Positions 3,082 through 28,685 of a stretch of DNA of 64,000 nt are shown in pieces. Origin of the DNA: Spirochaetia bacterium (GTDB taxonomy: Bacteria; Spirochaetota; Spirochaetia; UBA9216); the NCBI GenBank assembly GCA_963677925.2, contig CAXXYH010000003.1, positions 2,016,001-2,080,000 of the forward strand, given 5' to 3'. The notes under the pieces are model-generated. The model saw only the letters and a program-made list of their open reading frames with translations. It had not been told where the DNA came from and did not search any database. Each line of letters starts with the position of its first letter. The first letter of the stretch is position 1. A program made the translations under genes and the position numbers.

Positions 3082-5655
3082 ATGGAGATAATCCCCGGAT
3101 TAATAATGCCGCTATGGGCAATTATTCTAATATTAAGCGCTGTAACGGCAATCATTATCTTTGTTCTTATCAAGCTGCTGCTCAACTTCCGCTTTCTTAA
3201 GACCTGCGACAAGGCCTGCTGTGATGAAGAACTGCTGAAGGCTTTTCTGGAAAAGTATCCGCCGGGGGCACGCCTTAGAAAGACCCGGCTGATTCAGAGA
3301 GCCTCAGAAAAAAACGAGAGAGACTTCATTGCATCAACAGGACTCGACATACTTTGGGAGGAAAGGCTCAGATCAAACCGGAGGATTTCCGATCTTAAAA
3401 AGCTGTTGAAATACTACCCCGACCGGGGCTTGTTTTACTGTCTTGAAGCAGGGCCCTCAAAGCCCGGATTCGGAAAAATCCTTGCAAAAAAAACAGCTGA
3501 CAGCAGTGATGAACTGCTGCTGAAACGAATTGCAATAGCGGGAAAGGGCACCGATTTCAGCGGAAAATATGCAGCTTCGCTTATTCCCGATCAGCTACAG
3601 AACCTTCTTGAAATGACCGGAGACCCGGAGTGGCAGGTCAGATTTTTCGCCCTTAAGCTGTTAATTCATTACAGCGATAAAAGAGCTGAGCGTGCAGGCT
3701 GGGAGGCATTCAAAGATCCGGCTTTTCGAATCCGTGCAGCCCTTGCTACAGAATTCAAGACGGCAGACAAAAAAATGCTTGGAAAACATCTGCTGGAACT
3801 GCTCAAGGATGACCCGTCTTTCACAGTGAGAACTGCTTCCAGAAAGCGTCTGGACAGCGATTATCCGGAGTTCTACCGTATAGACACCGGAGACCTTAAT
3901 AAAACCCAGCTTTTCCATGTACTCGAACAGCTTCATGACGACTCAAAGGAAGATGAAAATACCGCTCTGCAGTATTTAATTTCTGATGATATGGAAATCA
4001 GGCTTCAGGCTGCGGTATATCTGCAGAGACAGAATGCGCTGAGCCGCCTTTTTATAAAAGCCGATCTGGGAGACAAAGAAGGATACAGGCGCGTATCTAC
4101 CCTCCTGGCGAACGCATGCGATGTTAACTGTACAAATTTTCTCGAAAAAATAGGGACTGTAGAAAACCCTGCTTCAATAATGCTGGCTGCGGATCTGCTG
4201 AAGCAGAACGGCAGCCGGAAATTTGTTGACTACCTTGCCGAAAGAATCTTTGCTCCGGCACTTGAAGCAAATGCGAAAGAAGCATTCATTGAGCTGTATG
4301 CTTCCGGTGTGGAATGTATTGCGCTTCGGGGCAGTGATGATGCACTGAGACTGATGGATAAGGAGCTTAAAAAATCAGCTGATGATCCGGTTAGACTCGG
4401 CATACTGCTTAAAGCTCTTCCTGAGCGCGGAGAGGATATATTCATACCAACCCTGCTAAATTTTCTGACTGAGGGTAATTTCTGCAAGCCGGATCTTCTC
4501 AGACACACTATAGAGCGTTTCTCTGTTTCAACCTACCTTGAAGTGCTGATTTCCATTCTTCACAATGAAGGCAGCGGCTACGGGGATAATATCCGGAAAG
4601 AAGCCTTTAAAATACTCGGTGAACTTAGAATGCCCTGCTGTCTCCAGGTAATACTTGAAAACCTCACAATATTGTCTCCGGGCCAGCAGCAGGAATTTGC
4701 CGCCCTTCTTGCGGAATACGCTCCGGATGTTTTCGAACAGCGGGTTTCCGATCTGCTTGAGTCTGTTGATGCGGCCGTCAAGGCATCACTTATCAGCAGC
4801 CTCCCGGCAACCGGAATGACAAGTTTTGTGAAAACAATTAAGGATGCAGCCGGAGATTCGGATCCGGAGGTAAGAATAGCCGGGGTAAGAGCTCTGGCCG
4901 GATTCGGAGAGACGAAGGTTATCGGTCAGATGACAGCCATGCTCAGGGATCCTGTTGAAAGAGTCAGAATGGAATCAGCTGAGGTAATAGCGGCTTCCGG
5001 ACCTGCTGCAGCACTAACGGAACTTGAAAAAATTATAAAGGATCCTAATGAGGTAGATCCTGTCAAGAAAGCAGCAGTAATAGGACTTGGTTATTCCGAA
5101 CGTGAAGAATCAGTCGGAATCCTTGTAAATCTGCTGAAGGACCCCGACCTTGCCGATACAGCCGTACAGGCTCTCAGCGTAAAGAAACCGGGCAAGCTTC
5201 TCAAGCTTCTGCTTGAATACTTCAAGGATGCCTCCCCCGAAGTCAGGGACCGTATAGCCGAATCCTTTAAACTGATGGGCAGCAGTATAGAACCCGAAAT
5301 TGTTTCAATACTGAAAGAAAACATCACATCACTGCATGGAGTGCTTGCCGACATTCTGCTGAAAACCGGATACATTGATACAACAATGAAGAAACTTCTG
5401 CACAGAAATCCCGATGTAAGAAAGGACGCTGCTTCAGTTCTCAGCCTGATAAAAACAAAGGAAGCATTTAAGGGTATAGTACTCGCTTCAAGGGACCCGG
5501 ATCAGAATGTTCGGGTTGAAGTGCTCAAGGCCCTTGAAATGCTTAACACCAAAGAGGGCAAACCGATTCTTGAAGAGCTGAAAAATGACCCGGACAAACG
5601 TGTCCGTAAATACACGCTCTGGGCTCTGGAGCGTCTTGACGCTAAGTCGGAATAG
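3082..5655 (+). CDS. Membrane-anchored HEAT-repeat protein
   Basis: N-terminal TM helix, many DPxxxVRxxA repeats, GGAGG RBS upstream. Confidence 0.85.
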   Translation: MEIIPGLIMPLWAIILILSAVTAIIIFVLIKLLLNFRFLKTCDKACCDEELLKAFLEKYPPGARLRKTRLIQRASEKNERDFIASTGLDILWEERLRSNRRISDLKKLLKYYPDRGLFYCLEAGPSKPGFGKILAKKTADSSDELLLKRIAIAGKGTDFSGKYAASLIPDQLQNLLEMTGDPEWQVRFFALKLLIHYSDKRAERAGWEAFKDPAFRIRAALATEFKTADKKMLGKHLLELLKDDPSFTVRTASRKRLDSDYPEFYRIDTGDLNKTQLFHVLEQLHDDSKEDENTALQYLISDDMEIRLQAAVYLQRQNALSRLFIKADLGDKEGYRRVSTLLANACDVNCTNFLEKIGTVENPASIMLAADLLKQNGSRKFVDYLAERIFAPALEANAKEAFIELYASGVECIALRGSDDALRLMDKELKKSADDPVRLGILLKALPERGEDIFIPTLLNFLTEGNFCKPDLLRHTIERFSVSTYLEVLISILHNEGSGYGDNIRKEAFKILGELRMPCCLQVILENLTILSPGQQQEFAALLAEYAPDVFEQRVSDLLESVDAAVKASLISSLPATGMTSFVKTIKDAAGDSDPEVRIAGVRALAGFGETKVIGQMTAMLRDPVERVRMESAEVIAASGPAAALTELEKIIKDPNEVDPVKKAAVIGLGYSEREESVGILVNLLKDPDLADTAVQALSVKKPGKLLKLLLEYFKDASPEVRDRIAESFKLMGSSIEPEIVSILKENITSLHGVLADILLKTGYIDTTMKKLLHRNPDVRKDAASVLSLIKTKEAFKGIVLASRDPDQNVRVEVLKALEMLNTKEGKPILEELKNDPDKRVRKYTLWALERLDAKSE

Positions 5656-15700: not shown

Positions 15701-16663
15701 AAAGTTGAGAATAAAATATTCCTGCTCGGCAGCTATGCGCTTCGGATAGCGCTCGGCATTGGTTACAGCCGGTCTGTCGGGCAGCACAGTCAGCTGCTCT
15801 TTTTCTCCGGGACCTGTCTGAATATAGAAACCGCGGTCCTCCCGGTAGCCGGAAAGATAGTAGCGCCGCAGATAAACCGAATTGAGATAGCCGTAGTTTC
15901 TGAACAGCATTACCAAATCGGTATTCATCGAAATCTCGCTTTCAAGCTTCACATAGTCTGAAAAATCAAAGCGGAAGAGCGTAGGTTTCATAAGGCCACC
16001 GCCCTCTCTTGCGGCCCCCTCCGAATAGCTTCCGAGAATAAGAAACAGCACCAGAATGATTGCTGGAATCACTGTGAGGAGAAAGGGCAGAAAGCGATGA
16101 ATAAACCCTGACTCACCCTCCTGACCGGAAAATACTATAACAAGAACCTCTGCTATGATGTAAATTACACAGATAAGCGCAAGGTAACCCTGATGGGGAA
16201 ATATTGTCAGTCTGTATCCTGCCTGAGTCCAGAGAAGGGAAGAGAGAATAAGCGCGTTTACAGCAAGCTCGGCAATGAGGAATTTCCTGCCCCATGATGA
16301 GAGGAAACCGCCTGCCCATATATACAGCATGGGGATAAAAAGCGGAATAAATGACGAATCGAAAAAGATCCCGTTGAAATTATATGCCGGATTTGCAGAG
16401 GCAGCGGCAAATCGGTCTGCAATAAAGATGTAGATGAACCTGATTACAAAAAGAAGAACTACCGCTCCCGGTAAAGAAGATACAAAACGCAGCCTGCTGC
16501 GGCCGCCGAGAACCCCTCCGACCGCCGCAGCGGCAAAACCTGAAATAAAGAGCACCGGAGATGCTATGTCGGAAAGAAACCGGAATCCTATAATAATCAG
16601 AACAAACTGGGCGGTGATGCGGAATGTAAGAACAAGTGCTTCGTTTCTAGAAAAACCTGACAA
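12755..16663 (-). CDS. Multi-TM transglutaminase-like protein fused to TPR repeats
   Basis: N-terminal TM helices; GYCSYFA / AHAWVEV / FDPT give the Cys-His-Asp triad; C-terminal TPR array. Confidence 0.85.
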   Translation of the reverse strand: MSGFSRNEALVLTFRITAQFVLIIIGFRFLSDIASPVLFISGFAAAAVGGVLGGRSRLRFVSSLPGAVVLLFVIRFIYIFIADRFAAASANPAYNFNGIFFDSSFIPLFIPMLYIWAGGFLSSWGRKFLIAELAVNALILSSLLWTQAGYRLTIFPHQGYLALICVIYIIAEVLVIVFSGQEGESGFIHRFLPFLLTVIPAIILVLFLILGSYSEGAAREGGGLMKPTLFRFDFSDYVKLESEISMNTDLVMLFRNYGYLNSVYLRRYYLSGYREDRGFYIQTGPGEKEQLTVLPDRPAVTNAERYPKRIAAEQEYFILNFDPSSLIAINYPVEITPLTNWDGSSFLRNYRAVSDAIELPSWDLMDAGMLPMSDRLYSFYTEYGDDEAIRELAEEVTEGLDLYYDKVMAIMYYLRDNYYYSLKPGVAVDGNQLNYFLFDSKKGYCSYFAFSMALMCRSLGIPARVAAGFYIDPQSGILNVYPVRADMAHAWVEVPFEEFGWVEFDPTSETVAPGEELEFGSINPDEYSSYVEEIFENEYSLADSPDEETADTDTQGLSLKAVIRYAAAKWPFILACLYIFTVFAVHLSALIRIRFNSGRKKARAVFRRASAWASASGGFRYSDESIHEYAVRTESKTGLCFTGLADFYLSSVFSDSYSAADAEALDASWTAFRISLKNVSHFKRILFILFPFRRLRSRRITALVLVLAALMLPVSHAEAQDFLDNPSAEQGGAAPDAGWYIDMAGREMDAENYEAALRLLKEGASEYPQSAEIYTELGTLYQDRELYNMSVENYNRALEINPLDSDIIYMRSVSEGLLNHDAESTASLEQVLILDPENFEAIADLGWMYFKTFRLNSAETLLLDAVERFPDSPILYMTLGTVYSGKYDYDNSRLNYQKAIDLALNEGWSYFASVSYYNLSLLEHGFYHYQESMDLTNMSIETSERAPGYIARAELFTRKLDFTNAFLNYQRAYILDSTPLALMGYADLYLTFGLLDEALSHINEVLNRSDDSWMYYFGVDRDRHLMEVDRILAEIYEGLAYRTAGMPETGLSRLGKLFQNIKYRMLSWFHDRRYRKASFNVGSQNYAEGNSLDAAWSFYKAAEKYPRKALPYLIQAEDIETAVAPEAEPSYLLEKGRLLSDPVMLSTAAGSFDPDWEKLELSEALTELIPIAEDSGRPEMSDEMAWQLYELNPGVFLKTDLKFPLRLDFEPGFRFRHILTSSGFKIFSNKSDNHYRYSLKAADNLTSGRIYQLEDGLSGRILFSIPVETDLSSRRDITAFVKKFKEKLYKISDEADAALPYQ

Positions 16664-17852
16664 AACGGCCTCCTGCGGCGGATAATTCCGATCCGACAGT
16701 CTGAGCCCTGCTGTTCACAGAGAGGCTCTGCCGCTGAAGCTTCCCTGCCAGCTGCTCTTCTGCCGGCTTTCTGAAAAAAACAGAGCTAAGCAGACTTCGG
16801 CTGTAGTCTCTGCTGTCTCCGGCCTTAAGACTGATCACAGGATGAACATCAAGACCGGCTGTATTCATTCTGCGCACTGCCCCGGCAGCATTTCTTGTGA
16901 CTGCGGTTGTAAGCAGAACCGCGCTTTTAAAGCGCCGATCAATATTCCAGCTTTTAAAACTGTCTGCAAAGACAGTACTGTCTGCAGATACAGCCTCCCC
17001 GGTACTGCCTGCATCCCACCATAATCCGGGATAGAGTTTTTCTGTCGGAACAACCGGTGCCTGCGGATATACGGCAAGGTTCACTTCAATTCCGGCATCA
17101 GCATAAAGCCTGCACATGCTCATAAGCTTTCCGACAGTCTCATCAAGATAAATATCAAGAAGATCACGGTATTCTCCATCCGGCTCAAAGCAGCAGCTAA
17201 GATCCGCAACCAGCAGAAGACGCTCTTCGGGAAGGGGGACTTCCTCGCCTATCCGGATAAACAGATCCCCGGAATGGGCATACTGCTTCCAGTTCAGCCG
17301 TCTTATATCATCTCCCGGGTAGTAGACCCGTGATTCAATCATATCTTCATTTCGCTTTTTCCGGCTGACTCTGGCTGCGGTTACTCCTCCCCGTGCCGGA
17401 GGTCTTTCGTTTATGGTGTTTTCATCAGCAACCAGGTTCACATCAACCGGACACTCACATCCGGGCTCAAGTTTAAGCCTGAAAAATCCCGGTATATCAC
17501 CGGTTTCAATACCGCAGCTGCTACAGGTATAAGCCCCTCGTTTTTCCGGTACTGTGCTTATACTTCCGGAGGGTTCCTGCCCGGGCCCGAGAGGGAGGCC
17601 CAGGCGGATATGCCTGTTCATCCATGTGAGCTCGGCAGTCAGCCTGCAGTAGAAGCCGGGCATCAGAAAAGACGGAGACATAGCTTCATATCTGAAGATT
17701 GTTTCTTCGCCGCAGGTAACCGGAAGTTCAGGACCGTAAATCCTTATACCATGCCGTATGCTTTTTTTAAGAGTCAGATACTGTATTACTGTGCCGGTTA
17801 ATGAGTATAAAAAAAGAAAGAGAAACCCGCTGCCCAGCAGGATTGTTCCCAT
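16647..17852 (-). CDS. DUF58 family protein (true start probably 17935, across a homopolymer frameshift)
   Basis: SRVYYPGDDIRRLNWKQYA motif; lies between MoxR and a transglutaminase-like gene. Confidence 0.8.
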   Translation of the reverse strand: MGTILLGSGFLFLFLYSLTGTVIQYLTLKKSIRHGIRIYGPELPVTCGEETIFRYEAMSPSFLMPGFYCRLTAELTWMNRHIRLGLPLGPGQEPSGSISTVPEKRGAYTCSSCGIETGDIPGFFRLKLEPGCECPVDVNLVADENTINERPPARGGVTAARVSRKKRNEDMIESRVYYPGDDIRRLNWKQYAHSGDLFIRIGEEVPLPEERLLLVADLSCCFEPDGEYRDLLDIYLDETVGKLMSMCRLYADAGIEVNLAVYPQAPVVPTEKLYPGLWWDAGSTGEAVSADSTVFADSFKSWNIDRRFKSAVLLTTAVTRNAAGAVRRMNTAGLDVHPVISLKAGDSRDYSRSLLSSVFFRKPAEEQLAGKLQRQSLSVNSRAQTVGSELSAAGGRFVRFF

Positions 17853-17915
17853 TTCAATACGGATAAGCCCTGTGATCAGAAAAACCAGCGAGGCAAAAAA
17901 AAACCTGCGCCTGTT

Positions 17916-18905
17916 TTAGTAATTGATTTTATCAAGACTGCCAATTATGAGTTCCCTTATCATTTCGCGGCTTCCGCTTTCCCTCTTTTTCATTACGATC
18001 CTGTGCGCGAGAACAGGTACTGCGAGGTCAATGATATCCTGATCGACAACATGATCTCTTCCGTGAAGCAGTGCGAGAGCCTTTGCCGATTTTATCAGCA
18101 TGAGCGAACCCCTCGGTGAGGCGCCCAGTTCTATTTCTTTTTTCGCCCTGGTCTGTGAAACGGCTGAAATAACCGCTTTTATAAGTTCGGGATGACAGTA
18201 AATCTCCCCCGCAGTATTCTGAACCGCAGTTATCGTTTTCCCTGTGCACACCGGGGTCAGTGACGGGATTGTTTTAACCGAGGGATCTTCGGTAACGATA
18301 AGAAACTCGGATTCTGCATCCGGATAGCCTATGGACAGCCTCATTAAAAACCGGTCCAGCTGCGCAGCCGGAAGCGTATAGGTACCTTCAATCTCAACCG
18401 GGTTCTGAGTGGCCATCACAAAAAAGAATTCACCAAGGCTGTGTGTTTTACCGCCTACCGTAACCTGATGCTCAGCCATGACCTCAAGCAGGGCGGACTG
18501 AACCTTCGGGGTTGTACGGTTTATTTCATCGGCAAGCAGAATGGATGTGAACACCGGTCCGTGCGCGAAATTGAAGCTGCCCGACTCGGGGTGAAAGACA
18601 TCGACACCGGTTATATCGTAGGGAAGAAGGTCGGGCGTAAACTGGATTCTGCTGAAGCCGGGAAAATCACTCTCAGATGTATCAATCAGGGAGGCAAAAG
18701 TCTTCGCTGCGGTTGTTTTCCCCAGTCCGGGCATATCCTCAACAAGGACATGACCGCCGGAGGCTGCTGCAGTTACAAGATACTCAAGGAATTCCCTCTT
18801 TCCCTTTATTACCCGCGATGCCTCCTCAACCAGACGGTTAAGGACTTCAGATGCTTCACTAAATGTTAATCCGCTCTCTTCACTCATTGTTATGGATTCT
18901 AACAT
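17916..18905 (-). CDS. MoxR-family AAA+ ATPase (start may be 18887)
   Basis: DMPGLGKT, RIQFTPDLLPYDITG, LADEINR, ATQNPVE and AQLDRF motifs. Confidence 0.95.
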   Translation of the reverse strand: MLESITMSEESGLTFSEASEVLNRLVEEASRVIKGKREFLEYLVTAAASGGHVLVEDMPGLGKTTAAKTFASLIDTSESDFPGFSRIQFTPDLLPYDITGVDVFHPESGSFNFAHGPVFTSILLADEINRTTPKVQSALLEVMAEHQVTVGGKTHSLGEFFFVMATQNPVEIEGTYTLPAAQLDRFLMRLSIGYPDAESEFLIVTEDPSVKTIPSLTPVCTGKTITAVQNTAGEIYCHPELIKAVISAVSQTRAKKEIELGASPRGSLMLIKSAKALALLHGRDHVVDQDIIDLAVPVLAHRIVMKKRESGSREMIRELIIGSLDKINY

Positions 18906-18910
18906 AATTT

Positions 18911-21900
18911 TCAGGCTGATACAATTTCAACAGCATCACGCAGGTAGAAAAGCCTGCACTCAGCCGGTTTGGAGAAAATACTGCTGGCAGCCCGGACATA
19001 GAGCTGCATCTGGGTACTGTATTCCTCAGGCAGACAGTAGCGGTCGGTCTTGAAATCCACAACAATTACCCGGTCTGACAGTTCAATAACAAGGTCCATA
19101 ATTCCGTTTACAGTTATCTCCCGGCCCTCATTCTCAGCAAGCAGTGTAAAGGCAAGTTCCGACTCAATATTTAAAGCAGCCGCTGCGGCCTCCCATACAT
19201 CGGAGCCGAAGAAACCGTCGGATATACGGAGAGCCTCGGCATAGACTGTCGGCCAGTCTTTTTCATTAATTTCACCGAACTGCGGCTGAAGCTCAGTCGA
19301 AGTGTAATCGGCCTTCTTAATCCGGTACTCGATAATCCGGTGGCAAAGTGTTCCAAATGAGGCCTCAAGTCCCGATTCTGCAATAATTGACGAGGCGGGT
19401 TCACTAAGCTCTGAAAGCATTTTCTCTTCAGAATACGCTGTTTGACTCTTTAATTCAGCGTTCAGACCTGTTGCCGAATACTGATACTTCGGCCGGCTGA
19501 AATCAAGAGGTGACCGCTGCCTGTACTGACTGATAACCATTGCATCATCGGGTGCTTCAGAGGCTCCGGCCTCGGTTCTCTCAAACCATTTGCGATCCCT
19601 GATTTCCTCAACTGTGAAAAGATCCTGATCGGCATCAAAAACCGTCTCGGAGCTCATTCCGGCCGAGGCAAGAAATATATTAAGCATTGAGGCGGGAGAA
19701 TTCCTGTTCTGCCTGCCGTGACAGCCTGAAATAACAAGATGGTTCCCGGCCCTTGTGAGCGCAACATAGAAAAGCCTCCGAAGTTCTGCTTCCTCACGGG
19801 CCTTACGTTCAGTTTTTCCAAGGGTGTAGAAATAATTACAGCGGGAACGGCCCTTTCCTGAGGTATCGGGAGCAACAAGGTTGAATGACAGACCGTATTT
19901 TTCAGAAATGCAGGCAGGCATCGAACTTCCGGTATCATTCATACCTGTATTGCCGGAGTTGGCAATTATCACTATCGGAAACTCCAGCCCCTTTGACTGA
20001 TGAACCGGCATCATCCGCACACCGCCTGTGGAATATTTCAGAATATTGAGATCGTTAACCTTGCGGTATTCACCGAGATTCTCACGCAGATAATCAAGAA
20101 AGACTGCAGCAGTCTCGGAACGATCATCCGCCTGAGCAGCAAGGGTCCGCAGATAGTCAAAGTATTCCAGATAGCCGCTGTATTCCGGATTCGCAAGCAG
20201 GATGTATCTGTAACCCGACTTGAACCACAGTGCTGAGACTATATCTGCGAGCGGAACACGATCCAGGGATGATGATATTTCAGAATAAAGCGCGGCCGCC
20301 TTCCTGTACTTCAGAAGATCATCCCCGCTGCTGCAGAGGCTCTCATTCCCATCAGTAAAAACGGGATTTTCAGAAAGCATCAGGCTTATAAAGCTTTTAT
20401 CTGAAAGATTCATGAAGGGAGAGCGGATTACCGCAGCCGACGCTGCCCGATCCTGCGGGTAGAGGCAGATCTGCAGAAAGCTGTAGATATCGTTAACCGG
20501 AGCCTCCTGAAAGAGAGTTCTGGTTGAGTGAACATCGTATGGAATAGACATTGCCCTGAAAACTTTCTCGTAGGTTTTCTGGTTGGCTCCGGATCTGAAA
20601 AGTACAGCATAATCATGATAGGCAGCCTTTCTGAGCTCACCCTTTTCAGAGACATCCAGAACACCGACGGTCTTTTTTATATACTCGGCAATACTCCAGG
20701 CTTCTGCCTCATCGTGATGAACATCATCATCTTCGGGGCTCTGATTCCATGGTTTATACAGAAGCCGGATATCAGGAGCTTTATTCAGAGGCCCAAGTCC
20801 TGGTTCAAGTGCTTCGAAAGCAGCCTGATAGTCCTCGGAACTTTCGCTCATGGCATTGCTGAAAACATTGTTGAAAAACCCGATAAGGCCCGGATCGCTT
20901 CGATAGTTCCGTTTCAGAGATAGGGCCTGCCCTCCTGCTTCAGCCAGTTCGCTGCTCAGCTGTTTAAACACACTGACATCTGCTCCCCGGAACATGTAGA
21001 TTGACTGCTTTTCATCACCGACAAAGAAGAGTTTCCCCGGATCCAGATCAGCAGTCCCGGGGATCCCGTCGGCCTCCTGACCTTCTTTCTCTGCAAGCAG
21101 ATAGAGCAGATCCTTCTGAACACTGTTGTTATCCTGAAACTCATCTATCATGATGAATTTGAAAAGACTTTTATAGTAGCGGCGCAGATTCTTATCCTGC
21201 TTAAGGCCTTCTACCGCAATACTCTGAACATCCCCAAAGCTTAGAATCCCGCTGAGCCGTTTTTTTCTGAACAAATGGGTCTGAAATTCCTGAGTAAGGG
21301 CAAAAAGTTTCTCAATAAGCTCCCGGCTGTCCAGCATACCGGTAATTTCATTGACTATGGACAGGAGACTTCTTATTTCATCGACGTATTCCTTGAAACT
21401 TACGAACTCTTCCTTTTTTGAGGAGCCGCGCGGCTTTTCAGTTTTAACCGTGGCCAGATATTTAAGCAGACCCGGGTAATCAGCATTCGCGGTAAGCTCA
21501 GTAATAATCTCCATATCGGGAAGGCTGGCAGCAGCGGTTTTCATACTTTCTGTTACAGGCTCAAGGGCCGCGGCATTTGCAGTAAATTCAGAAAGCCTCC
21601 GGACGGCTGTTTTCAGATCGTTTTCGGCGGTATGCATCTGCTTCTGAAAGATATCGGAAAAATCCAGCGGATTTCCGATTGAAAAACATGCCGAAGAAAG
21701 CCATTCAAAATATTCATGCCATACCTTTTCAAATCCGTTGATATAGATGAACTCCGCAAGGGCCTTGTCATCATTGTGACTCAGAATAAACTCAAGCCCT
21801 GCGGCCCCGGACAGTTCGGAAGCAAGGCCCTCATCGGTCACAAAGCCAGGTGCAATCCCGAACATGCCGCAGCAGTCGCGTGCAATACGCGAGCAGAAGC

Positions 21901-22186
21901 TGTCCAGCGTTGATATAACGGCCTTGTCAAATGAAGCGGCGGCATCGGCCACTCTTTGGTTCGAACGGTCAGAAGACATGAGCCTGTATATTCTTTCATA
22001 CATTTCAGCCGCAGCCTTGCGGGTAAAAGTCAGTGTAAGAATCTCCGAAACATCTGCACGGCCTTCGGCCACAAGCCGCAGGAAGCGCAGGGCAAGAACT
22101 GTTGTCTTGCCCGATCCGGCGCCCGCAGAGACTACCGAGTTAGTATTGGAATCTATTACAGCCTGCTGGTAAATATCGGGTTTCAT
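18911..22186 (-). CDS. AddA/UvrD-like ATP-dependent helicase-nuclease
   Basis: AGAGSGKT, TFTRKAA, IDEFQD, VGDEKQSIYMFRGAD, HQSKGLEF and YVALTRA; C-terminal GIMD..VVDFKT nuclease motif. Confidence 0.9.
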   Translation of the reverse strand: MKPDIYQQAVIDSNTNSVVSAGAGSGKTTVLALRFLRLVAEGRADVSEILTLTFTRKAAAEMYERIYRLMSSDRSNQRVADAAASFDKAVISTLDSFCSRIARDCCGMFGIAPGFVTDEGLASELSGAAGLEFILSHNDDKALAEFIYINGFEKVWHEYFEWLSSACFSIGNPLDFSDIFQKQMHTAENDLKTAVRRLSEFTANAAALEPVTESMKTAAASLPDMEIITELTANADYPGLLKYLATVKTEKPRGSSKKEEFVSFKEYVDEIRSLLSIVNEITGMLDSRELIEKLFALTQEFQTHLFRKKRLSGILSFGDVQSIAVEGLKQDKNLRRYYKSLFKFIMIDEFQDNNSVQKDLLYLLAEKEGQEADGIPGTADLDPGKLFFVGDEKQSIYMFRGADVSVFKQLSSELAEAGGQALSLKRNYRSDPGLIGFFNNVFSNAMSESSEDYQAAFEALEPGLGPLNKAPDIRLLYKPWNQSPEDDDVHHDEAEAWSIAEYIKKTVGVLDVSEKGELRKAAYHDYAVLFRSGANQKTYEKVFRAMSIPYDVHSTRTLFQEAPVNDIYSFLQICLYPQDRAASAAVIRSPFMNLSDKSFISLMLSENPVFTDGNESLCSSGDDLLKYRKAAALYSEISSSLDRVPLADIVSALWFKSGYRYILLANPEYSGYLEYFDYLRTLAAQADDRSETAAVFLDYLRENLGEYRKVNDLNILKYSTGGVRMMPVHQSKGLEFPIVIIANSGNTGMNDTGSSMPACISEKYGLSFNLVAPDTSGKGRSRCNYFYTLGKTERKAREEAELRRLFYVALTRAGNHLVISGCHGRQNRNSPASMLNIFLASAGMSSETVFDADQDLFTVEEIRDRKWFERTEAGASEAPDDAMVISQYRQRSPLDFSRPKYQYSATGLNAELKSQTAYSEEKMLSELSEPASSIIAESGLEASFGTLCHRIIEYRIKKADYTSTELQPQFGEINEKDWPTVYAEALRISDGFFGSDVWEAAAAALNIESELAFTLLAENEGREITVNGIMDLVIELSDRVIVVDFKTDRYCLPEEYSTQMQLYVRAASSIFSKPAECRLFYLRDAVEIVSA

Positions 22187-24924
22187 TATTTTCGGCCTCC
22201 AAACCTGACTGCGTATTTGCGGCGGCAGACGGGGTAAAAATCACAGCCGCTGCAGCGTTCGGGAGCGGTGAATATTCCTTCTCTTACCGATTTTCCCATC
22301 CTGATAATTTCATTCATCGTCAGGCGGCAGAGCGCTTCAGCCTGTTCTGCATCCAGAATTCCGGCCTCACCGGATACCTGAAAATGCTCGGCAGAGGTCA
22401 CGCTGTAATAGGATGTTGAATCAACCTCAAAACCGGCCTGCCTGGCAAGGATGATATAAAATGGAATCTGGTATCCGATAGGCGGCTTCATCAGCGCTCC
22501 CGACTCATCAAGGCTGAAATAGTCTGCAGTCTTCTTCTTTTTCCAGTTCCGCTTGTAGTCAATAACAGCAGCCCTGCCGGCTTTTACAGAGATCCTGTCA
22601 GTACGGCCTGCGGCCTTTATATTCTCACCGGGAATTTCGTACTCAAGCCAGTCTTCAATCAGCGCAGGAGTATAGCCGTCATAGAGGGCACCCTCCGCTT
22701 CAGGCATCCGTGACATGTATTCAAGAGCCCTTCTGCAGGCGGTATCCCAGGCAGGACCGAAGAAGTAATTCGCCCTTTTCTCCCAGTCCTCAAAAACAGT
22801 CCTGGCGGAGGTCCTTATCAATTCACGGTATTCATCCCGTTTTTCAACAGAAAAAGCCTGTCCCGATTCTTTAAGAAGAGTAAAGAAATGCCCCAGGATT
22901 TCATGAAGAAGCTCACCGTCGGTAAAGGGGTCTTCAACCTGCAGGACATACTCATCCGCACGGACCCCGAGTAAATCAGCCAGCAGATAACTGTAGGGAC
23001 AGTTTGTCCAGCGGTTGAGTGTTGTGGCCGATATTTTCAGATTCAGATCTTCACCGTAACGCCTTGCTATACAGGCTCCGGCAAGATCGGAATCCTGCAG
23101 AGGGGTGAAGGTAAAATCATCGGAAGCCGGAAGCAGCCCTGTTGCCGCCGAGTAATCAAAGCCGTCAGCCTGTGACTTCATAAGCGGCCAGTCGACTCCG
23201 AAATCTCCGTACCACCAGGATGTTTCAAGCTGTTCCGGGTCTGAAAAAACAGTACCGGCCTCCCCCTGCGCTCCGGAATCTTCGGAAAAAGCAATCCGGT
23301 CAACTGAACCGGCTGAAATAAAATATGCCGGGGCCAGGGCTACACCTGAGAAGGTCTCAGCCGCTCCGGAAATTACCGGACTATCTCCGCTTTTTGAATA
23401 AATCCGCAGGAAGGCTTCAGTCATATTATTTTCCTGAAGCTTCAGTCCCCTTCTTATCTGATCACCGAGGAAGGGCAACGGAACAGACACTACAGCAGAG
23501 TTCTCATGATTGAGTCCTGCAATAAAGTGATATTTCGGCCTTATACCCGCGGAAACCCTGTACCTGTACAGCGGAATGGCTTCTGCATCAGCCTGACTTA
23601 CATAAATCTTTTCCTTCAAAACCTCAATCCACAGTCCAAGCGGATCCCTGATGCTGATTCCCTCAAGGGCGTTTTCGGCATCCTGGAGTGAGGAGAGGAC
23701 CTCTCTTGTTCTCTGAAAAACCTTCAGGGTTTCAGGGTCCCAGAGCTCTTCATCGGTTTCAAGAAAGGTGCTGATGAATATCTGCATCTCGTCGCTGAGT
23801 TTTTTCAGGCTGCCGGCTTTTACAACTGCTGTAATTCTCTTTTTAAGTTTGAGGTAAAAATCCTTCAGCTCCCACCGCTTCATATTGCTCAGCCGCTGCT
23901 CCCAGACATCGCCATTACTTCCGGGACCGAAGTTGCGCAGACAGCGGTTCTCAATTCCGAAGCGGATAAGAGCGTCTGCAGTTTCTTTTTCCTTCCAGAG
24001 AAAGGCCCGGAACAGCAGAAGCACCTTCATTGATGCTATATCAAAGCTTCCTGAATAGCAGGACCGGATAAGTTCGGGAAGACGGCCGCCGGGCAGCTCA
24101 CCTACCGGTGTACCGCTTCTTACACTCAGCGGAATCCCGTAACGTCCGGCCTTGGAAACCATGTAAGCGGCAAGCGCCTCATCCGGACATGTCACCGCTA
24201 TGTCCTGATAGCGCAGCCCCTGCTGCAGCAGACCCGAAATACCGGCAAGAACTTCATCGCCTTCAATTGCCGAGTTGTCATAAAAACGGTAGCGGCAGTC
24301 CGCAGCCCCTGAGTCAGAAACAAAGCTGCAGCCGGAGGCGGCCAGAACGCTCCGGTATTCTTCAAAGTCTTCGATAAGTTCGGGGAATACTATGTAGTAT
24401 TTTTTATCCGGAGTGCTGATATCCGGCATCTCCCAGCCGGGCTCAAAGAGGCTGTTTTTCTCAAGAACAGAAGAATATTCCTCGTACAGTCTCATATAAT
24501 CATCCGACAGACCGTCACCGGCGGCTTCGCGGAACAGAGCCTCATTCGCATTGAAGGCATCAGCAAAACGCTTAAGTCCCGGAAGAACCCTGACAAGCTG
24601 ATCGGCAAAACCGGAAGCAACTTCGTCAAAACCCGAGGGGAGTATATATCTGTATACCGGAGCCTGTGAAATATTTCGTGCAAGCAGGTCTGCACAGAAA
24701 AGCTTGCGGTGAATTGAGTTTACCGGTCTCTCAATTCTGTCATGCAGGGTCACCGATTCCTTAAAACTGTCCCATGATAAAAACACATCGTTGCGTACAG
24801 CATCAGTCTGAAGGAGTTTCAGAGCCTTTATCCTCCAGCTGACTACAGCAGCCTCTGAAGGAAAAACATAAACAGCCCCGCCGGCTATACCTTCGCGAAT
24901 CAGCAATTCCTCGATTTTTTTCAT
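22186..24924 (-). CDS. AddB-like PD-(D/E)XK nuclease subunit
   Basis: Degenerate helicase-like N-terminus; GRTDRI..VIDYK; iron-staple Cys pattern (CPYSY ... CSGCDFYPVC); TAATG coupling to addA. Confidence 0.8.
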   Translation of the reverse strand: MKKIEELLIREGIAGGAVYVFPSEAAVVSWRIKALKLLQTDAVRNDVFLSWDSFKESVTLHDRIERPVNSIHRKLFCADLLARNISQAPVYRYILPSGFDEVASGFADQLVRVLPGLKRFADAFNANEALFREAAGDGLSDDYMRLYEEYSSVLEKNSLFEPGWEMPDISTPDKKYYIVFPELIEDFEEYRSVLAASGCSFVSDSGAADCRYRFYDNSAIEGDEVLAGISGLLQQGLRYQDIAVTCPDEALAAYMVSKAGRYGIPLSVRSGTPVGELPGGRLPELIRSCYSGSFDIASMKVLLLFRAFLWKEKETADALIRFGIENRCLRNFGPGSNGDVWEQRLSNMKRWELKDFYLKLKKRITAVVKAGSLKKLSDEMQIFISTFLETDEELWDPETLKVFQRTREVLSSLQDAENALEGISIRDPLGLWIEVLKEKIYVSQADAEAIPLYRYRVSAGIRPKYHFIAGLNHENSAVVSVPLPFLGDQIRRGLKLQENNMTEAFLRIYSKSGDSPVISGAAETFSGVALAPAYFISAGSVDRIAFSEDSGAQGEAGTVFSDPEQLETSWWYGDFGVDWPLMKSQADGFDYSAATGLLPASDDFTFTPLQDSDLAGACIARRYGEDLNLKISATTLNRWTNCPYSYLLADLLGVRADEYVLQVEDPFTDGELLHEILGHFFTLLKESGQAFSVEKRDEYRELIRTSARTVFEDWEKRANYFFGPAWDTACRRALEYMSRMPEAEGALYDGYTPALIEDWLEYEIPGENIKAAGRTDRISVKAGRAAVIDYKRNWKKKKTADYFSLDESGALMKPPIGYQIPFYIILARQAGFEVDSTSYYSVTSAEHFQVSGEAGILDAEQAEALCRLTMNEIIRMGKSVREGIFTAPERCSGCDFYPVCRRKYAVRFGGRK

Positions 24925-24981
24925 TGCAACATTCTAACATAAAACAGGTTCTTGACTATACTATTGATTATCGTTTTAATA

Positions 24982-25917
24982 ATGAAGATGCGTATCCCCA
25001 ACAGTACTATCACATTTTGCGTTAAGGCGTTATCGCAGTCCATGGACAACAGGACTATGTCAACGCTGACAAGAAGATTAATCCCGGGTTATGATCTTCA
25101 CCAGAGAACCGGAATCCCTTCAAGCGTTGCCATACCGAACCAGAACGCGGCACGCCAGGTTGTAAAAGATATAATTGCCTGCAATCTCTTTCTTGATTTC
25201 GTCCTTCTTCTTATAAATTTCAGTGACCAGGGAAAGGGCATTGCCGGCAGGAAAATCGCCATACCCTATCTCAGGCAGATACTCAACTCCGTATACCAGC
25301 TTGGATACATCTATGATCCCAGCAGCAGAATGTTCCTGGAAAACCCCGCGGTTAGAAAAACCAGAAACTGGGGAACACTGAAAAACAATGTAGAGTATAC
25401 GATTGCATTTCTGCGGATAGATATTGCCGGAAATACAAAGCTTGTTAGAAAGCACGGCGCCGATCAGATCAGGGAATCCTACCGGACGCTCCGCGGAATT
25501 GTAACCCGTGCTGTTGATAAAAGAAACGGCCGTGTCTGGGGATGGGACGGAGACGGCGGACTGGCCGCCTTCTGTTTCGGCAATATGAATGAAACGGCAG
25601 TACTGGCCGCACTTGAAGTAATCCATGAACTTTTTCTTTATAATCACACCGACTGCCCGGTAGACGACGGTATACATGTCAGAATAGCTGTGCACAGCGG
25701 CCCCTTTGAATACACATCCGGCAGTGAAGAGATCCAGCAGGCCGAAACGGTTAAAAAAGTTAATTCCATCGAAAAAAATCAGGCAGAAACAGACTCTGTT
25801 ACAACCAGCCAGGCTGTCAACGTAATGCTTGAACCGCTTACAGCCAGGCAGTTCGACAGCTTCAAGGCCAAGGATAACAGGGTCTATTACCGCTACAAAC
25901 TGGAGTTAGCAGACTGA
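24982..25917 (+). CDS. Class III nucleotidyl cyclase-like protein A (retains metal-binding Asp residues)
   Basis: FLRIDIAGNT, WDGDGG and RIAVHSG motifs, with an unknown helical N-terminal domain. Start is 24982 or 24988; the TTG at 24952 is more likely part of a -35 box. Confidence 0.75.
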   Translation: MKMRIPNSTITFCVKALSQSMDNRTMSTLTRRLIPGYDLHQRTGIPSSVAIPNQNAARQVVKDIIACNLFLDFVLLLINFSDQGKGIAGRKIAIPYLRQILNSVYQLGYIYDPSSRMFLENPAVRKTRNWGTLKNNVEYTIAFLRIDIAGNTKLVRKHGADQIRESYRTLRGIVTRAVDKRNGRVWGWDGDGGLAAFCFGNMNETAVLAALEVIHELFLYNHTDCPVDDGIHVRIAVHSGPFEYTSGSEEIQQAETVKKVNSIEKNQAETDSVTTSQAVNVMLEPLTARQFDSFKAKDNRVYYRYKLELAD

Positions 25918-26912
25918 TGCCGGAAATCATTATTTTTTCAGATATACGCGGGAAACTCAAATGTTTTGAGAGCTTTGAAAAGAAAAAGGATTATACTCTT
26001 ACCTACTGCATGCTTAATGAGATGCGTAAAATACTGAAGGCTCCATCATCAGATAATGTATATGTATATGATTACGCATCCGGGAGCGATACATCGGCGC
26101 TAAAGGATCTGAAATACATTCTTAAAAAAGAAGGTTTTCCCCTGCTGGTAGTAGACCGGAAAAACCAGATTGAAGATCCTGCCGGAATCATCTTCAAAGG
26201 TTTTGATTACATCAGTTCAGGCATGTACCGCAGCGGATATAAACCTGCAAGACTTAAACAGTATCTTGAGTTCAGGGCACAGGACCCGGAATTTGTAGAC
26301 AAGGAACCCTCACCGGCTCCGCAGGGCTGTTCAGAGCCTTCATACAGCGGTGTCGACTGGAAAAACATTAGAAGCGGCCGGGAATACACCTTCTTCATGC
26401 TGTATACCGAAATAAGAATAACCGCCGAGATGAAAAAGAAATCAGGAGCCGAATTTCTCACCAGAATGATTCAGGTCTTCCAGACTACAGTTGAGCGAAC
26501 CGTAACAGACTATGGAGGAAGGATATGGATCTGGAACGATTACGGCGGTCTTGCCCTCTTCCCCTATAACGGGGACACAACCGCACCTGTACTGGCTGCT
26601 GTCAAGCTTTTCATAAACAGGTTTACACTGAGTATTGAAGAGTTCGGGATGCATGATGCTGTGAGTTTCAGAGCGGCTATGCATCTTGGTAAGACCACTT
26701 ATAAAAGCCGCGGGAAAACAGGAACAATAATTTCGGATTCAATAAACTCTATTTACCATCTCGGAGCAAAATATACGGAGCCTGATCACTTCACCATTAC
26801 AGAGGAAGTTTACTCCGTGCTTACAAATAGAATGGCTGCTCTTTTCAGGAAAAACGGCGAATTTGAAGACCGGAGGATCTATCTTTTCAGGGACTTTAAA
26901 AGACCCTGCTGA
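25917..26912 (+). CDS. Class III nucleotidyl cyclase-like protein B (metal ligands degenerate, Asn retained)
   Basis: YGGRIWIWNDYGG, RAAMHLG and IISDSINSIYHL motifs; receiver-like N-terminus; TGATG overlap with the upstream gene. Confidence 0.7.
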   Translation: MPEIIIFSDIRGKLKCFESFEKKKDYTLTYCMLNEMRKILKAPSSDNVYVYDYASGSDTSALKDLKYILKKEGFPLLVVDRKNQIEDPAGIIFKGFDYISSGMYRSGYKPARLKQYLEFRAQDPEFVDKEPSPAPQGCSEPSYSGVDWKNIRSGREYTFFMLYTEIRITAEMKKKSGAEFLTRMIQVFQTTVERTVTDYGGRIWIWNDYGGLALFPYNGDTTAPVLAAVKLFINRFTLSIEEFGMHDAVSFRAAMHLGKTTYKSRGKTGTIISDSINSIYHLGAKYTEPDHFTITEEVYSVLTNRMAALFRKNGEFEDRRIYLFRDFKRPC

Positions 26913-26921
26913 CAGACTGTA

Positions 26922-26950
26922 TTGACAGCAGAAAGATGTTCTGGTATATT
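26922..26950 (+). promoter_or_regulatory. Sigma-70 promoter of tRNA-Ala
   Basis: TTGACA-N17-TATATT with an extended TG. Confidence 0.75.
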
Positions 26951-26961
26951 TCCGAACAGTC

Positions 26962-27035
26962 GGGGGTGTAGCTCAGTTGGCTAGAGCGCGTGAATGGCAT
27001 TCACGAGGTCAGGGGTTCGATTCCCCTCACCTCCA
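26962..27035 (+). tRNA. tRNA-Ala (anticodon GGC), CCA not encoded
   Basis: Acceptor stem GGGGGTG/CACCTCC with G3:U70, TAGCTCAGTTGG D-arm, CGTGA-ATGGCAT-TCACG anticodon arm, GGTTCGATTCC T-arm. Confidence 0.97.
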
Positions 27036-27044
27036 GTACAAAAA

Positions 27045-28685
27045 ATGGATATCGAAAATGATAAAAACGATAATCTTTTCTCCGGAGAGATGGACCCTGA
27101 CATAGCCGATTTAATGGGCTTTGACAACAATGAGGGTCCTTCTTTTGATCTGCTTTTTGAGGAAGGCACAGGCAATGAGCTGCCGCCCGAAGAACCGGGA
27201 TTCTCAAGCACCGAATTTGAAAAAATAACAAAATTTCTTGAAGATACTCCAAGCCAGATTTTCCGTAATAAGGAATACTATAAACAGGCACTTTCCGGCG
27301 AGGGTGATGAGGCTCAGCGCTTTCATAAAAACCTTACCGAATATATGAATACGGAAAACCCGAAAGACCGCTCAATGATCAGGGGCAAACTGATTTCCGC
27401 CTACTGGGATCTTGCTGAAAGCATAGCGAAGAAGATTCATGCCGGCCTGCCTGATCCGAAAAGATTTACATTGAGATACGGTTCTGTGCTTCCTAATATA
27501 ATTTCAGCCGAAACCAGAGACCTTCTTGCCAAAGTTATAGTTGAAAACAGTACACCCGAACCGGTCCACTACCTGGATGAATGGCTGTATAAAATATCCA
27601 CCGGTGCAGTAAACGCCTCCATTACCGATGAGGTCAAAACCACTAAACTGAAAAGCTCTGAAAACCTGAAGCCGCAGATTGACAAACTGCAGGGCCAGAG
27701 CCGCTCTATAATGGGTATTATTAAACGGAAACAGGAAATTCTCGCCGACAATGAGAACCTTCTGCTTGAAAAAATAAAGCTTGCCAGCGGCAAAGAAAGA
27801 AATCTCAATTACCCGGACCTTTACACCACATATAATTCAGAACAGAGGCGTGCTCATTACGATATCAGCCAGATTCTGAAATATCTGCAGAAACAGGACA
27901 AGGAAATTTCAGGGCTGTTTTTCGATCTTGAAAAAAACGACAAACTGCTTAAATCTCTTGAAGAAAAGGCTGAACGCCTCGGTGAGGTAATGCATGTCGA
28001 CACCTCGATAATAATCAAGGAGTTCGGTTCCATCAGGCAGATGGCCAAGATGTGTGTCGGACGGCAGGGCAATCATATTCCAATTCTGATGAAGCAGTAT
28101 TTCAATGCCGATCAGTATAACCTTGGAACAAGGGAAAACGTAATATGTGAACTATCCAAGGTTGAAACACTCGATCCGGGTCTGTTTATGCGAACCTTCA
28201 AACGCGAAACAACCAGAATTGTTCCCTATATCATCCTGATACCATGCTACGGCGAAAGAGGAATATGCTGGGAGCCCTTTGAAAAATACAACAGGGCGAC
28301 AAGCCGCGGAAGAATTGCAATTCCAATGTACTCAAAAGATCTAAACACAGCTATTATTGCCGCCATGGCAGACCTTAGATGGCAGGTGGCCAAAGAGAAG
28401 GCCCAGCACTACTGGATGGAAGAAGGCCTGACCGGTCATTATTACCAGTGGTTCTCTGAAAAACGTATGAAAGGTGATGTCCGGGAACGCTTCATCAACG
28501 ATTACATACTCTGGATAACCAAGGAAAGTGAAGGAACCCAGAAACTTGAGCGAGAGGTCAGGGGCATATTCTGGAGAGACATGCCCTTTCCCGATGAGAT
28601 TAGAGACAAATTGAAAAACCGGGGATTCGTCTACAACGAGCTCTATAAAAAAGACATCAACCGTTCAATGTCGGACGGATATTAA
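27045..28685 (+). CDS. Hypothetical protein with coiled coil and aromatic-rich C-terminal domain
   Basis: Long ORF. Start moved to the first ATG after the tRNA. Acidic N-terminus, coiled-coil middle, Trp/Tyr-rich C-terminus. Confidence 0.8.
   Translation: MDIENDKNDNLFSGEMDPDIADLMGFDNNEGPSFDLLFEEGTGNELPPEEPGFSSTEFEKITKFLEDTPSQIFRNKEYYKQALSGEGDEAQRFHKNLTEYMNTENPKDRSMIRGKLISAYWDLAESIAKKIHAGLPDPKRFTLRYGSVLPNIISAETRDLLAKVIVENSTPEPVHYLDEWLYKISTGAVNASITDEVKTTKLKSSENLKPQIDKLQGQSRSIMGIIKRKQEILADNENLLLEKIKLASGKERNLNYPDLYTTYNSEQRRAHYDISQILKYLQKQDKEISGLFFDLEKNDKLLKSLEEKAERLGEVMHVDTSIIIKEFGSIRQMAKMCVGRQGNHIPILMKQYFNADQYNLGTRENVICELSKVETLDPGLFMRTFKRETTRIVPYIILIPCYGERGICWEPFEKYNRATSRGRIAIPMYSKDLNTAIIAAMADLRWQVAKEKAQHYWMEEGLTGHYYQWFSEKRMKGDVRERFINDYILWITKESEGTQKLEREVRGIFWRDMPFPDEIRDKLKNRGFVYNELYKKDINRSMSDGY

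Follow-up and report, generated by a model that had tools for sequence, protein, structure and literature searches.

A candidate two-gene, split class III nucleotidyl cyclase with reciprocal half-sites in Spirochaetota

Two adjacent genes of a Spirochaetia bacterium (lineage UBA9216, assembly GCA_963677925.2) encode a candidate heteromeric class III nucleotidyl cyclase whose catalytic residues appear to be divided between two polypeptides. The genes, here called A and B, lie on the forward strand within the window, a 64,000-nucleotide stretch of contig CAXXYH010000003.1 (positions 2,016,001 to 2,080,000). An earlier note, made by a model from the letters of the window alone, had described them as complementary half-cyclases that form an obligate heterodimer with one active site and non-canonical specificity. 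The present analysis points to A as the carrier of the metal-binding half of a cyclase active site and to B as the carrier of its transition-state half, with the same division kept across the family and with the two proteins predicted to bind each other. On balance, we give slightly better than even chances to the reading that A and B together form an obligate heteromeric class III nucleotidyl cyclase with a composite site.

Paralogy, fold and half-sites of A and B

By sequence comparison, A and B are paralogous far beyond chance. Their C-terminal 176 residues are 25% identical (BLASTP E 9e-17), and the profiles of the two families align with an hhalign probability of 99.1 (E 1e-18). The shared motifs to which the earlier note had pointed are all present, both the lead-in (NWGTLKNNVEY in A, DWKNIRSGREY in B) and the GR(V/I)W-x-W segment (GRVWGW, GRIWIW). 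The same is true of the motifs it had quoted from the catalytic region, RIDIAG, WDGD and AETVKKVNSIE in A and YTEIR, WNDY and SDSINSIYHL in B.

The class III cyclase fold proposed for both proteins is supported by structure prediction and structure search. The AlphaFold2 models have predicted local distance difference test (pLDDT) scores of 93.4 for A and 84.9 for B. With the model of A, an exhaustive VIA structure search gave Z 21.3 to 2w01 (root-mean-square deviation 2.4 over 174 residues), 21.0 to 1wc1 and 20.2 to 1cs4_A, and Foldseek matched class III cyclases at E of about 1e-9. The model of B was matched by Foldseek to 2w01 (E 1.8e-8), 4wpa (TM-score 0.79) and 1ybt (TM-score 0.80). All top Foldseek matches of both models are class III cyclases, at probability 1.00. 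Membership of A in the GGDEF family was considered and rejected, the VIA Z-scores being at most 12.6 for GGDEF domains versus 21 for cyclases.

Sequence profiles link A to class III cyclases clearly and B weakly. Searched against the PDB, a profile of 54 relatives of A found 3mr7 (E 5.8e-7) and Ma1120 (5e-5), as well as 7r65, 1ybt and the alpha subunit of soluble guanylyl cyclase (4ni2, E 0.039). The B profile reached no cyclase in the PDB by sequence and returned only a weak receiver match for its N-terminal domain. A PF00211 search of the whole 5.04-Mb genome found ten other cyclases, with A and B not among them. Seven of these ten PF00211 cyclase domains formed the canonical comparison set (one of the other three held a stop in the cut-out). 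Aligned to the seven by hhalign, A scored a probability of 96.6 and B a probability of 23 (E 8.8e-4), a weak but colinear match. In a BLASTP comparison with the canonical cyclase at position 1507 of the window, A gave nothing and B a weak colinear match (E 0.022).

The alignments divide the catalytic residues between the two proteins (Table 1). A holds an Asp at both metal positions, Asp147 and Asp191, and has Lys258 and Ser262 where the transition-state Asn and Arg are expected. B keeps the Asn as Asn277, with His281 in place of Arg, so that neither protein has the canonical Asn and Arg pair of helix alpha4. For A, the profile-profile alignment reproduces the alignment that had been made by eye in the earlier note. 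For B, it recovers Glu165, Asn277 and His281 and departs at the second metal position, where the weak alignment to the canonical domains opens a 3-residue gap and places Leu212 instead of Tyr209. The assignment of Tyr209 follows from the gapless A/B alignment, not from that to the canonical domains. Under either alignment there is no Asp at this position of B, and Asp208 adjoins Tyr209.

Across the family, the pattern was read from non-redundant cyclase domains of 119 loci in other genomes. Both metal Asp residues occur in 66/66 first genes (A-type) and in 0/65 second genes (B-type). The combination of Asn and His occurs in 0/66 first genes and in 63/65 second genes, and Asn alone in all 65. 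The description of A as keeping both metal Asp residues without the transition-state pair, and of B as keeping Asn with His for Arg, therefore holds well beyond this genome. The statement that B has lost its metal ligands stands as to the Asp pair but not as to acidity, because the first position holds Glu165, and Glu is found there in 35/52 main-clade B sequences and 38/65 of all second genes. The second metal position is Phe or Tyr in 37/52 main-clade B sequences. In A, the Asn position is Lys in 37/48 main-clade sequences, and the residue at the Arg position varies across the family (E, Q, D, M and others). An alignment of 21 B sequences shows G266, K267, T268, G269, T270, S273, D274, S275, N277 and H281 to be invariant. 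Thirteen divergent pairs, in which the second gene carries another N-terminal domain, show the same pattern. As far as the alignments can tell, A and B are two paralogous domains with reciprocal half-sites.

The residues at the base-specifying positions are non-canonical, as the earlier note had stated. In B these are Ile205 (Met or Ile in 37/37 sequences) and Thr270 (Thr in 23/37), the latter placed in the loop around 262-270, which holds the second specificity position and is the least certain part of the alignment. At the position of Ile205, A has Gly187, which is Asn or Ser in most A sequences, and the single-gene relatives described below have mostly Ser and Arg. As aligned, these residues fit neither the Lys/Asp code for ATP nor the Glu/Cys code for GTP. 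No product prediction is justified from them, and a site with His for Arg and non-purine specificity residues leaves room for an unusual product.

Co-occurrence, coupling and single-gene relatives

In a phylum sample of 401 genomes, the A profile matches 128 and the B profile 96. The two profiles cross-match each other's cyclase domain, and the weakest A matches are probably ordinary cyclases, so occurrences were counted at the level of loci. B-type genes occur in about a quarter of the 401 genomes. Loci centred on A have B directly downstream in 29/29 cases (one cut by a contig end), and those centred on B have A directly upstream in 30/30 (one A frameshifted). An independent scan for B-specific motifs, with one genome per species, gave 79 loci, every record of which is titled Spirochaetota or a subgroup of Spirochaetota. 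A lies directly upstream on the same strand in 72 of the 79 (65 flagged by script and 7 recognized by inspection, with A overlapping B's stop-to-stop frame), and the other 7 start at a contig edge. Thus, none of the 72 testable loci has B without A where there is room for A, and the proposed co-occurrence of the two genes is borne out.

The spacing of the two genes supports translational coupling across the family. With start sites picked by a heuristic, 107 non-redundant junctions show a distance from the stop of A to the start of B of 0 nt in 35, an overlap of 1-4 nt in 22 and a gap of 1-12 nt in 25, so that the spacing of 82/107 lies in the range from 4 nt of overlap to 12 nt of gap. In the 35 pairs with no spacing (L015-L039 and others), the ATG of B directly follows the stop of A in the same frame, and the two frames are kept apart by one stop codon. 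At one further locus (L084, G110:C18, 1995-3752, minus strand), the stop-to-stop frame of B is 586 residues long and overlaps A, and the N-terminal domain of B matches the profile only weakly.

Over 1.84 billion representatives, a larger search with the B profile found 572 clusters at E ≤ 0.001, and 218 at the stricter E ≤ 1e-30. No fused A-B chain was seen among proteins of 546-2000 residues, which is weak evidence, or among the best 150 of the 572 matches. The only long protein among those 150, P0249 (630 residues), has a B-type cyclase domain behind a 420-residue region with a P-loop motif (GPHGSGKTT). It was rejected as an A-B fusion because it has no A part, and it may be a gene-call merge or a real fusion with the P-loop region. 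P0259 is a B protein with a long linker.

Homologues also occur singly, which the earlier note had listed as a point against its proposal. Such single genes were found, as a distinct group in which all four catalytic residues are kept. These solo relatives (L070-L082, L086, L087, L089, L110, L111 and L117-L121) resemble A in architecture, though their N-domain match is weak. They lack a partner gene within 2 kb and often share a genome with an A/B pair. The complete set, Asp, Asp and Asn with His in 20 and Lys or Arg in 4, is found in 24/27 solo genes. The three exceptions are an A-type gene cut at a contig end and two fragments. Over all 27, the Arg position is His in 21 and Lys or Arg in 5. 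Two other kinds of relative were observed. L112, L113 and L114 consist of a cyclase domain only (about 200 residues), two without Asn and His and one with Asn and Lys. L085 (G080:C1, 1911-3593, minus strand) is a 561-residue frame with a C-terminal solo-type cyclase domain and an N-terminal region of about 350 residues.

A maximum-likelihood tree (FastTree) was rooted on the seven canonical domains of this genome, through a long branch that leaves the root insecure. In this tree the solo sequences are basal and form a paraphyletic group, and A and B emerge as sister clades (support 0.946). This topology is as predicted by a single duplication followed by reciprocal loss. The tree thus suggests that the ancestor of the group as a whole already had His in place of Arg.

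A probably natural hybrid joins the two halves again. In genome G331 (locus L083, G331:C6, 2001-2972, minus strand), one in-frame gene matches the A protein of a same-genus genome at about 98% of residues up to GDGGL, and the B protein of that genome at about 95-100% after it. It thus comprises the A N-terminal domain and first half of the A cyclase domain, followed by the second half of the B domain. Both Asp residues, Asn and His thus stand together in a single polypeptide, and no partner gene lies within 2 kb. An assembler join seems unlikely as its origin, judging from the few bases that the parent A and B genes share at the junction.

The predicted complex and competing explanations

A complex of full-length A with residues 140-331 of B was modelled from our own alignments in three runs, together with three controls. 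The A:B model reached a median ipSAE of 0.84 (0.82, 0.84 and 0.84 in the runs) and the best control 0.00, in keeping with the A:B binding expected by the earlier note. The mark of 0.84 is reached by 116/157 solved complexes and by 2/215 mismatched pairs, a comparison that holds roughly here, as our own alignments were used, and that is to be read with the cyclase dimers of the PDB in mind, since a predictor may reproduce dimers already solved for a family. Contact agreement between the runs is at least 95%, and the partner pLDDT is 86. At the level of prediction, the model supports binding of A to B.

The modelled interface joins A 204-223, 284-292 and 305-310 to B 222-248, 303-309 and 325-331. 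At its core, helix alpha3 of each domain packs antiparallel to the other (A 204-223 and B 222-241, centred on A215/B233), along with the C-terminal strands. Residues conserved in the family lie within it, namely Glu212, His215, Asn221 and the C-terminal ...Y.Y.L.WE tail of A, and Asn234 and Glu241 of B. Inter-protein covariation was computed as mutual information with average product correction (MI-APC) over 109 pairs (effective number 83). Covariation above that of random pairs is seen for the 25 listed contact pairs (mean z 1.0, reached by 0/5000 random draws), against a null that is crude in ignoring phylogeny and column variability. The top MI-APC pairs are dominated by clade-splitting columns, such as Glu120 of A, and the measure is not a contact predictor. 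The block of beta2-beta3 against beta2-beta3 has a mean z of -0.13; its columns hardly vary, so the value says nothing on the canonical contact.

In the favoured reading, A and B would be made in step from one bicistronic message. A would supply the metal-binding Asp147 and Asp191 and probably Arg234 of the conserved strand beta4, and B would supply Asn277, His281 in the role of the canonical Arg, and the loop that contacts base and phosphate (R265-T270, I205). A complete catalytic centre would exist only where the catalytic face of A meets that of B, with the receiver-like domain of B and the helical N-terminal domain of A as likely regulatory inputs. The pair would have arisen in Spirochaetota by duplication of a single-gene, four-residue enzyme and subsequent reciprocal loss. 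The analysis itself covers paralogy, fold, residue pattern, synteny, coupling and predicted binding; a meeting of the half-sites in trans, an activity of the complex and its regulation by the N-terminal domains are inferred from these. Strictly reciprocal half-sites are hard to explain other than by action in trans on the same substrate molecule.

Several observations weigh against this reading. Neither beta2-beta3 loop (A 189-192, B 207-210) lies in the modelled interface, and the beta4-beta5 dimerization arm is shortened by 4-6 residues relative to the genome's canonical domains. Reasoning from the ferredoxin-like topology, alpha3 should lie behind the sheet, away from the catalytic face. 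The Gs-alpha site on alpha2'/alpha3' was used together with the topology to place alpha3 distally. If alpha3 is distal, the model does not bring the Asp pair of A to the Asn and His of B, and, taken alone, it backs a stable pairing of A with B without extending to a composite site. A contact placed at alpha3 and the C-termini suggests that there is more to the assembly than one wreath-like 1:1 dimer. For a composite site to form, A and B would also have to meet face to face, as they might in A2B2. The proposal of an obligate heterodimer with one active site accordingly stands in part: the half-sites, the co-occurrence and the modelled binding agree with it, and the modelled interface is not the canonical head-to-tail one. 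Moreover, His in place of Arg and Glu165 in B leave the catalytic chemistry putative. Neither A nor B has a Pfam (PF00211 included) or NCBIfam match at E ≤ 1, and among their relatives PF00211 weakly matches 6/54 of A (best E 0.0053) and 0/21 of B. Cyclase-like domains without cyclase activity are also known. A preprint describes AdvA as an inactive one (bioRxiv 10.64898/2026.04.03.716176), and 6yii, titled 'adenylyl cyclase-like ATP-binding protein', matches A at VIA Z 16.

The main rival explanation builds on these points. A and B could be a stable non-catalytic pseudo-cyclase heterodimer, joined back-to-back through alpha3 and the C-termini, that acts as a nucleotide or partner sensor or as a scaffold with a receiver-like input on B. 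The non-catalytic position of the modelled interface, the shortened arm, the scores below the Pfam cyclase model and the existence of non-enzymatic cyclase-like domains (AdvA and 6yii) would all fit. However, the half-sites are strictly kept (Asp and Asp in 66/66 A; Asn in 65/65 and His in 63/65 B), and the losses are exactly reciprocal and start from a complete, ancestor-like form, which would be unexpected in a dead scaffold. A sensor would not need metal ligands in A plus a transition-state pair in B. We consider a pseudo-cyclase unlikely.

A more specific proposal goes further than the favoured reading. The pair may be an independently evolved split cyclase of the animal type, held back-to-back by a new alpha3/C-terminal interface and catalytic only when the faces of different heterodimers meet in an A2B2 ring or polymer. 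It would use His for the universal Arg, make a product other than cAMP or cGMP and be controlled by an atypical receiver. As a whole, this proposal is speculative and ranks below the pseudo-cyclase in likelihood.

Lower again, and quite improbable in our estimate, is a catalytic higher-order heteromer (A2B2 or an alternating polymer) in which alpha3/C-terminal contacts alternate with face-to-face A:B contacts, the latter building the composite site and perhaps being the regulated step. Such an assembly would reconcile the modelled interface and the covariation with the reciprocal half-sites, and the C-terminal tail of A and the conserved alpha3 residues (A E212, H215 and N221; B N234 and E241) do lie in the modelled interface. 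Against this, the modelled stoichiometry is 1:1 only, and the idea depends on our view of alpha3 as distal to the catalytic face.

The least probable explanation is one enzyme with one regulatory subunit, for example a homodimer of A that uses Lys258 for Asn and is modulated or inhibited by B through phosphorylation of Asp52: the Lys of most main-clade A sequences (37/48), the receiver-like domain of B and the ability of soluble guanylyl cyclase catalytic domains to pair as homodimers (PMC3591389) speak for it, but A lacks the Asn/His pair in 66/66 and does not conserve the residue at the Arg position, B lacks the Asp pair in 65/65, and a B with a purely regulatory role would have no need for an invariant Asn/His or for the invariant GKTGT..SDS.N...H stretch.

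Accessory domains, genomic setting and known systems

The helical N-terminal domain of A is unrecognized, as first noted: AlphaFold2 predicts helices, and no match was found in Pfam, NCBIfam or the protein atlas, with the VIA search barely covering residues 1-126. The domain is conserved among A-type proteins, where its profile scores 130-177 bits, and weakly so in solo proteins, at 20-60 bits.

The N-terminal domain of B, which is followed by a disordered linker (residues 125-139), appears receiver-like but atypical. Its alignment to 27 receiver domains of this genome by hhalign (probability 83.8, E 7.9e-6; 0.7 for the A N-domain in a control against the same domains) agrees with the receiver-like assignment made earlier. 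The profile also matches 8svz in the PDB (E 0.02). An invariant Asp52 (26070-26072) occupies the phospho-acceptor position, Asp80 stands where Thr or Ser is expected, and the conserved Lys is absent. The domain has no Pfam Response_reg (PF00072) match and is not among the 77 receiver matches of the genome at E ≤ 1e-10. No kinase gene is linked to the pair.

A and B form a two-gene unit, bounded by an opposite-strand gene upstream and, directly downstream, by a tRNA gene with its own promoter-like site. The TGATG overlap of stop and start reported in the earlier note is present (Table 1). The reading frame of gene A is also open from a TTG at 24952 (24952/24982..25917). Its true start is probably the ATG at 24988, two codons downstream of the start first chosen, which fits the family consensus start MR.... 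Existing names are 'class 3 adenylate cyclase' for A in some sources and 'hypothetical' for B.

Table 1. Positions in the window of genes A and B, their domains and key residues, and adjoining features
Feature	Position	Strand	Basis or remark
Gene A	24982..25917	+	Open reading frame, 311 residues; probably 309 from ATG 24988; candidate metal-binding half-site subunit
Gene B	25917..26912	+	Open reading frame, 331 residues; candidate Asn/His half-site subunit
A/B stop/start overlap, TGATG	25915..25919	+	TGA 25915-25917 and ATG 25917-25919, one base in common
A, helical N-terminal domain (residues 1-125)	24982..25356	+	AlphaFold2 helices, pLDDT about 90
A, cyclase homology domain (126-311)	25357..25914	+	VIA, Foldseek, profile against PDB
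A, Asp147, first metal position	25420..25422	+	Aligned to canonical Asp; Asp in 66/66 first genes
A, Asp191, second metal position (GDGG)	25552..25554	+	Aligned to canonical Asp; Asp in 66/66 first genes
A, Lys258...Ser262, at transition-state Asn/Arg positions	25753..25767	+	hhalign to canonical domains; Asn and Arg both lost
B, receiver-like (beta-alpha)5 domain (1-125)	25917..26291	+	AlphaFold2 secondary structure
B, cyclase homology domain (140-331)	26334..26909	+	Foldseek, hhalign to A family
B, Glu165, first metal position	26409..26411	+	hhalign; Asp here in only 4/65 second genes
B, Tyr209, second metal position, Asp lost	26541..26543	+	Gapless A/B alignment
B, RGKTGTIISDSINSIYH, with Thr270 (base-contact position), Asn277 and His281 (canonical Arg position)	26709..26759	+	Highest conservation within the family
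Weak sigma-70-like promoter match upstream of gene A	24934..24962	+	9/12 consensus positions; consensus match only
Strong promoter-like site of tRNA-Ala(GGC) itself	26922-26950	+	Upstream of the tRNA gene
tRNA-Ala(GGC)	26962..27035	+	Starts 50 bases past B; marks 3' end of the two-gene unit

The neighbours of the pair in the window are an AddB-like nuclease gene (upstream, opposite strand), the tRNA-Ala gene, a gene for a 563-residue protein and one for a methyl-accepting chemotaxis protein. The upstream gene, which encodes an AddB-like PD-(D/E)XK protein (912 residues), is the last of a minus-strand run (16647-24924) that also encodes a DUF58 protein, a MoxR-type AAA ATPase and an AddA-like UvrD helicase-nuclease (1091 residues), and it is divergent from gene A. 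Downstream, the listed 563-residue frame (26994-28685, +) begins inside tRNA-Ala(GGC), and the true start of the protein is later, near 27048; it has no Pfam or NCBIfam family. The canonical cyclase of the window (1507-3060, +) has a GAF-PAS-cyclase architecture and matches PF00211 at E 5e-32. It is followed 22 bases later by a gene for an 857-residue HEAT-repeat protein (3082-5655, +). Searched by tblastn against all loci, the neighbours of the window matched only in its own locus. Pfam searches of 94 flanking open reading frames from 74 other loci found no recurrent partner and no cyclic-nucleotide-binding effector, and these frames are varied housekeeping or signalling genes that differ by lineage. 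Within this sample, no third gene appears to be conserved beside the pair.

Bacterial class III cyclases are generally regarded as homodimers, and the class III heteromers that we know of are eukaryotic, namely membrane adenylyl cyclase, soluble guanylyl cyclase and the chytrid rhodopsin cyclases. An active site split across two different domains is seen as characteristic of soluble guanylyl cyclase and the adenylyl cyclases of animals. A full-text literature search, whose coverage is thin for subscription journals, found no heteromeric class III cyclase encoded by two bacterial genes.

The homodimeric bacterial cyclases CyaC (1wc1), Cya2 (2w01), Ma1120 (4wp8) and Rv1900c (1ybt) are the best structural matches of both domains. 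Like the solo relatives, they have all four catalytic residues in one chain, whereas A and B each lack one half-site and the family falls below the PF00211 thresholds and uses His rather than Arg. The Pycsar pyrimidine cyclases (7r65, 8jsf and 8jsz) share the class III fold with A (VIA Z 16.5-19.9) and combine it with a non-purine specificity. In these systems, a homodimeric cyclase is encoded beside an effector gene within a defence island. No effector gene of this kind was seen beside the pair in the window or among the 94 flanking frames; the PADLOC library was not searched.

The closest parallels in the division of labour are eukaryotic. In mammalian adenylyl cyclase, one domain (C1 or C2) gives the metal Asp residues and the other the base-specifying and transition-state residues, leaving one competent and one degenerate site (PMC4174876). 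The spirochaete pair resembles this arrangement (1cs4; A against 1cs4_A, Z 20.2) in having two paralogous class III domains with apparently divided catalytic residues. Unlike C1 and C2, which share one chain, its halves are two separate and probably coupled genes, with His for Arg, no Lys/Asp purine code and a shorter arm, and the modelled contact runs through alpha3 and the C-termini instead of the wreath-like cleft interface.

Soluble guanylyl cyclase alpha1/beta1 (3uvj, 6jt0) likewise consists of two separate homologous polypeptides, and it is described in PMC3591389 as a heterodimer whose active-site residues are split between subunits, with a pseudo-symmetric second site. It is eukaryotic, and its pairing is enforced by H-NOX, PAS and coiled-coil domains, whereas the spirochaete proteins have receiver-like and helical domains. 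The latter pair probably arose independently of it, from the bacterial solo form. The chytrid rhodopsin-guanylyl cyclases (RGC/NeoR) are exclusively heterodimeric in function (PMC8815786). Unlike A and B, they are eukaryotic, membrane-bound and light-gated. AdvA of Acinetobacter baumannii and PA4961 share with A and B a cyclase homology fold without the usual dimerization arm (7sua against A, Z 14). In AdvA, the canonical catalytic residues are altogether absent, whereas A and B each strictly keep one half-site.

If the favoured reading is correct, the same split outcome would have been reached in a bacterial phylum, and its intermediate stages would survive today as a complete single-gene form, a pair of sister lineages that lost opposite halves and an A/B hybrid that has all four residues. 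With these living intermediates, the path by which heteromeric cyclases evolve could be tested directly, through exchange and mixing of subunits. As the family escapes Pfam and B proteins go by the name 'hypothetical', cyclic-nucleotide signalling in spirochaetes may be under-counted.

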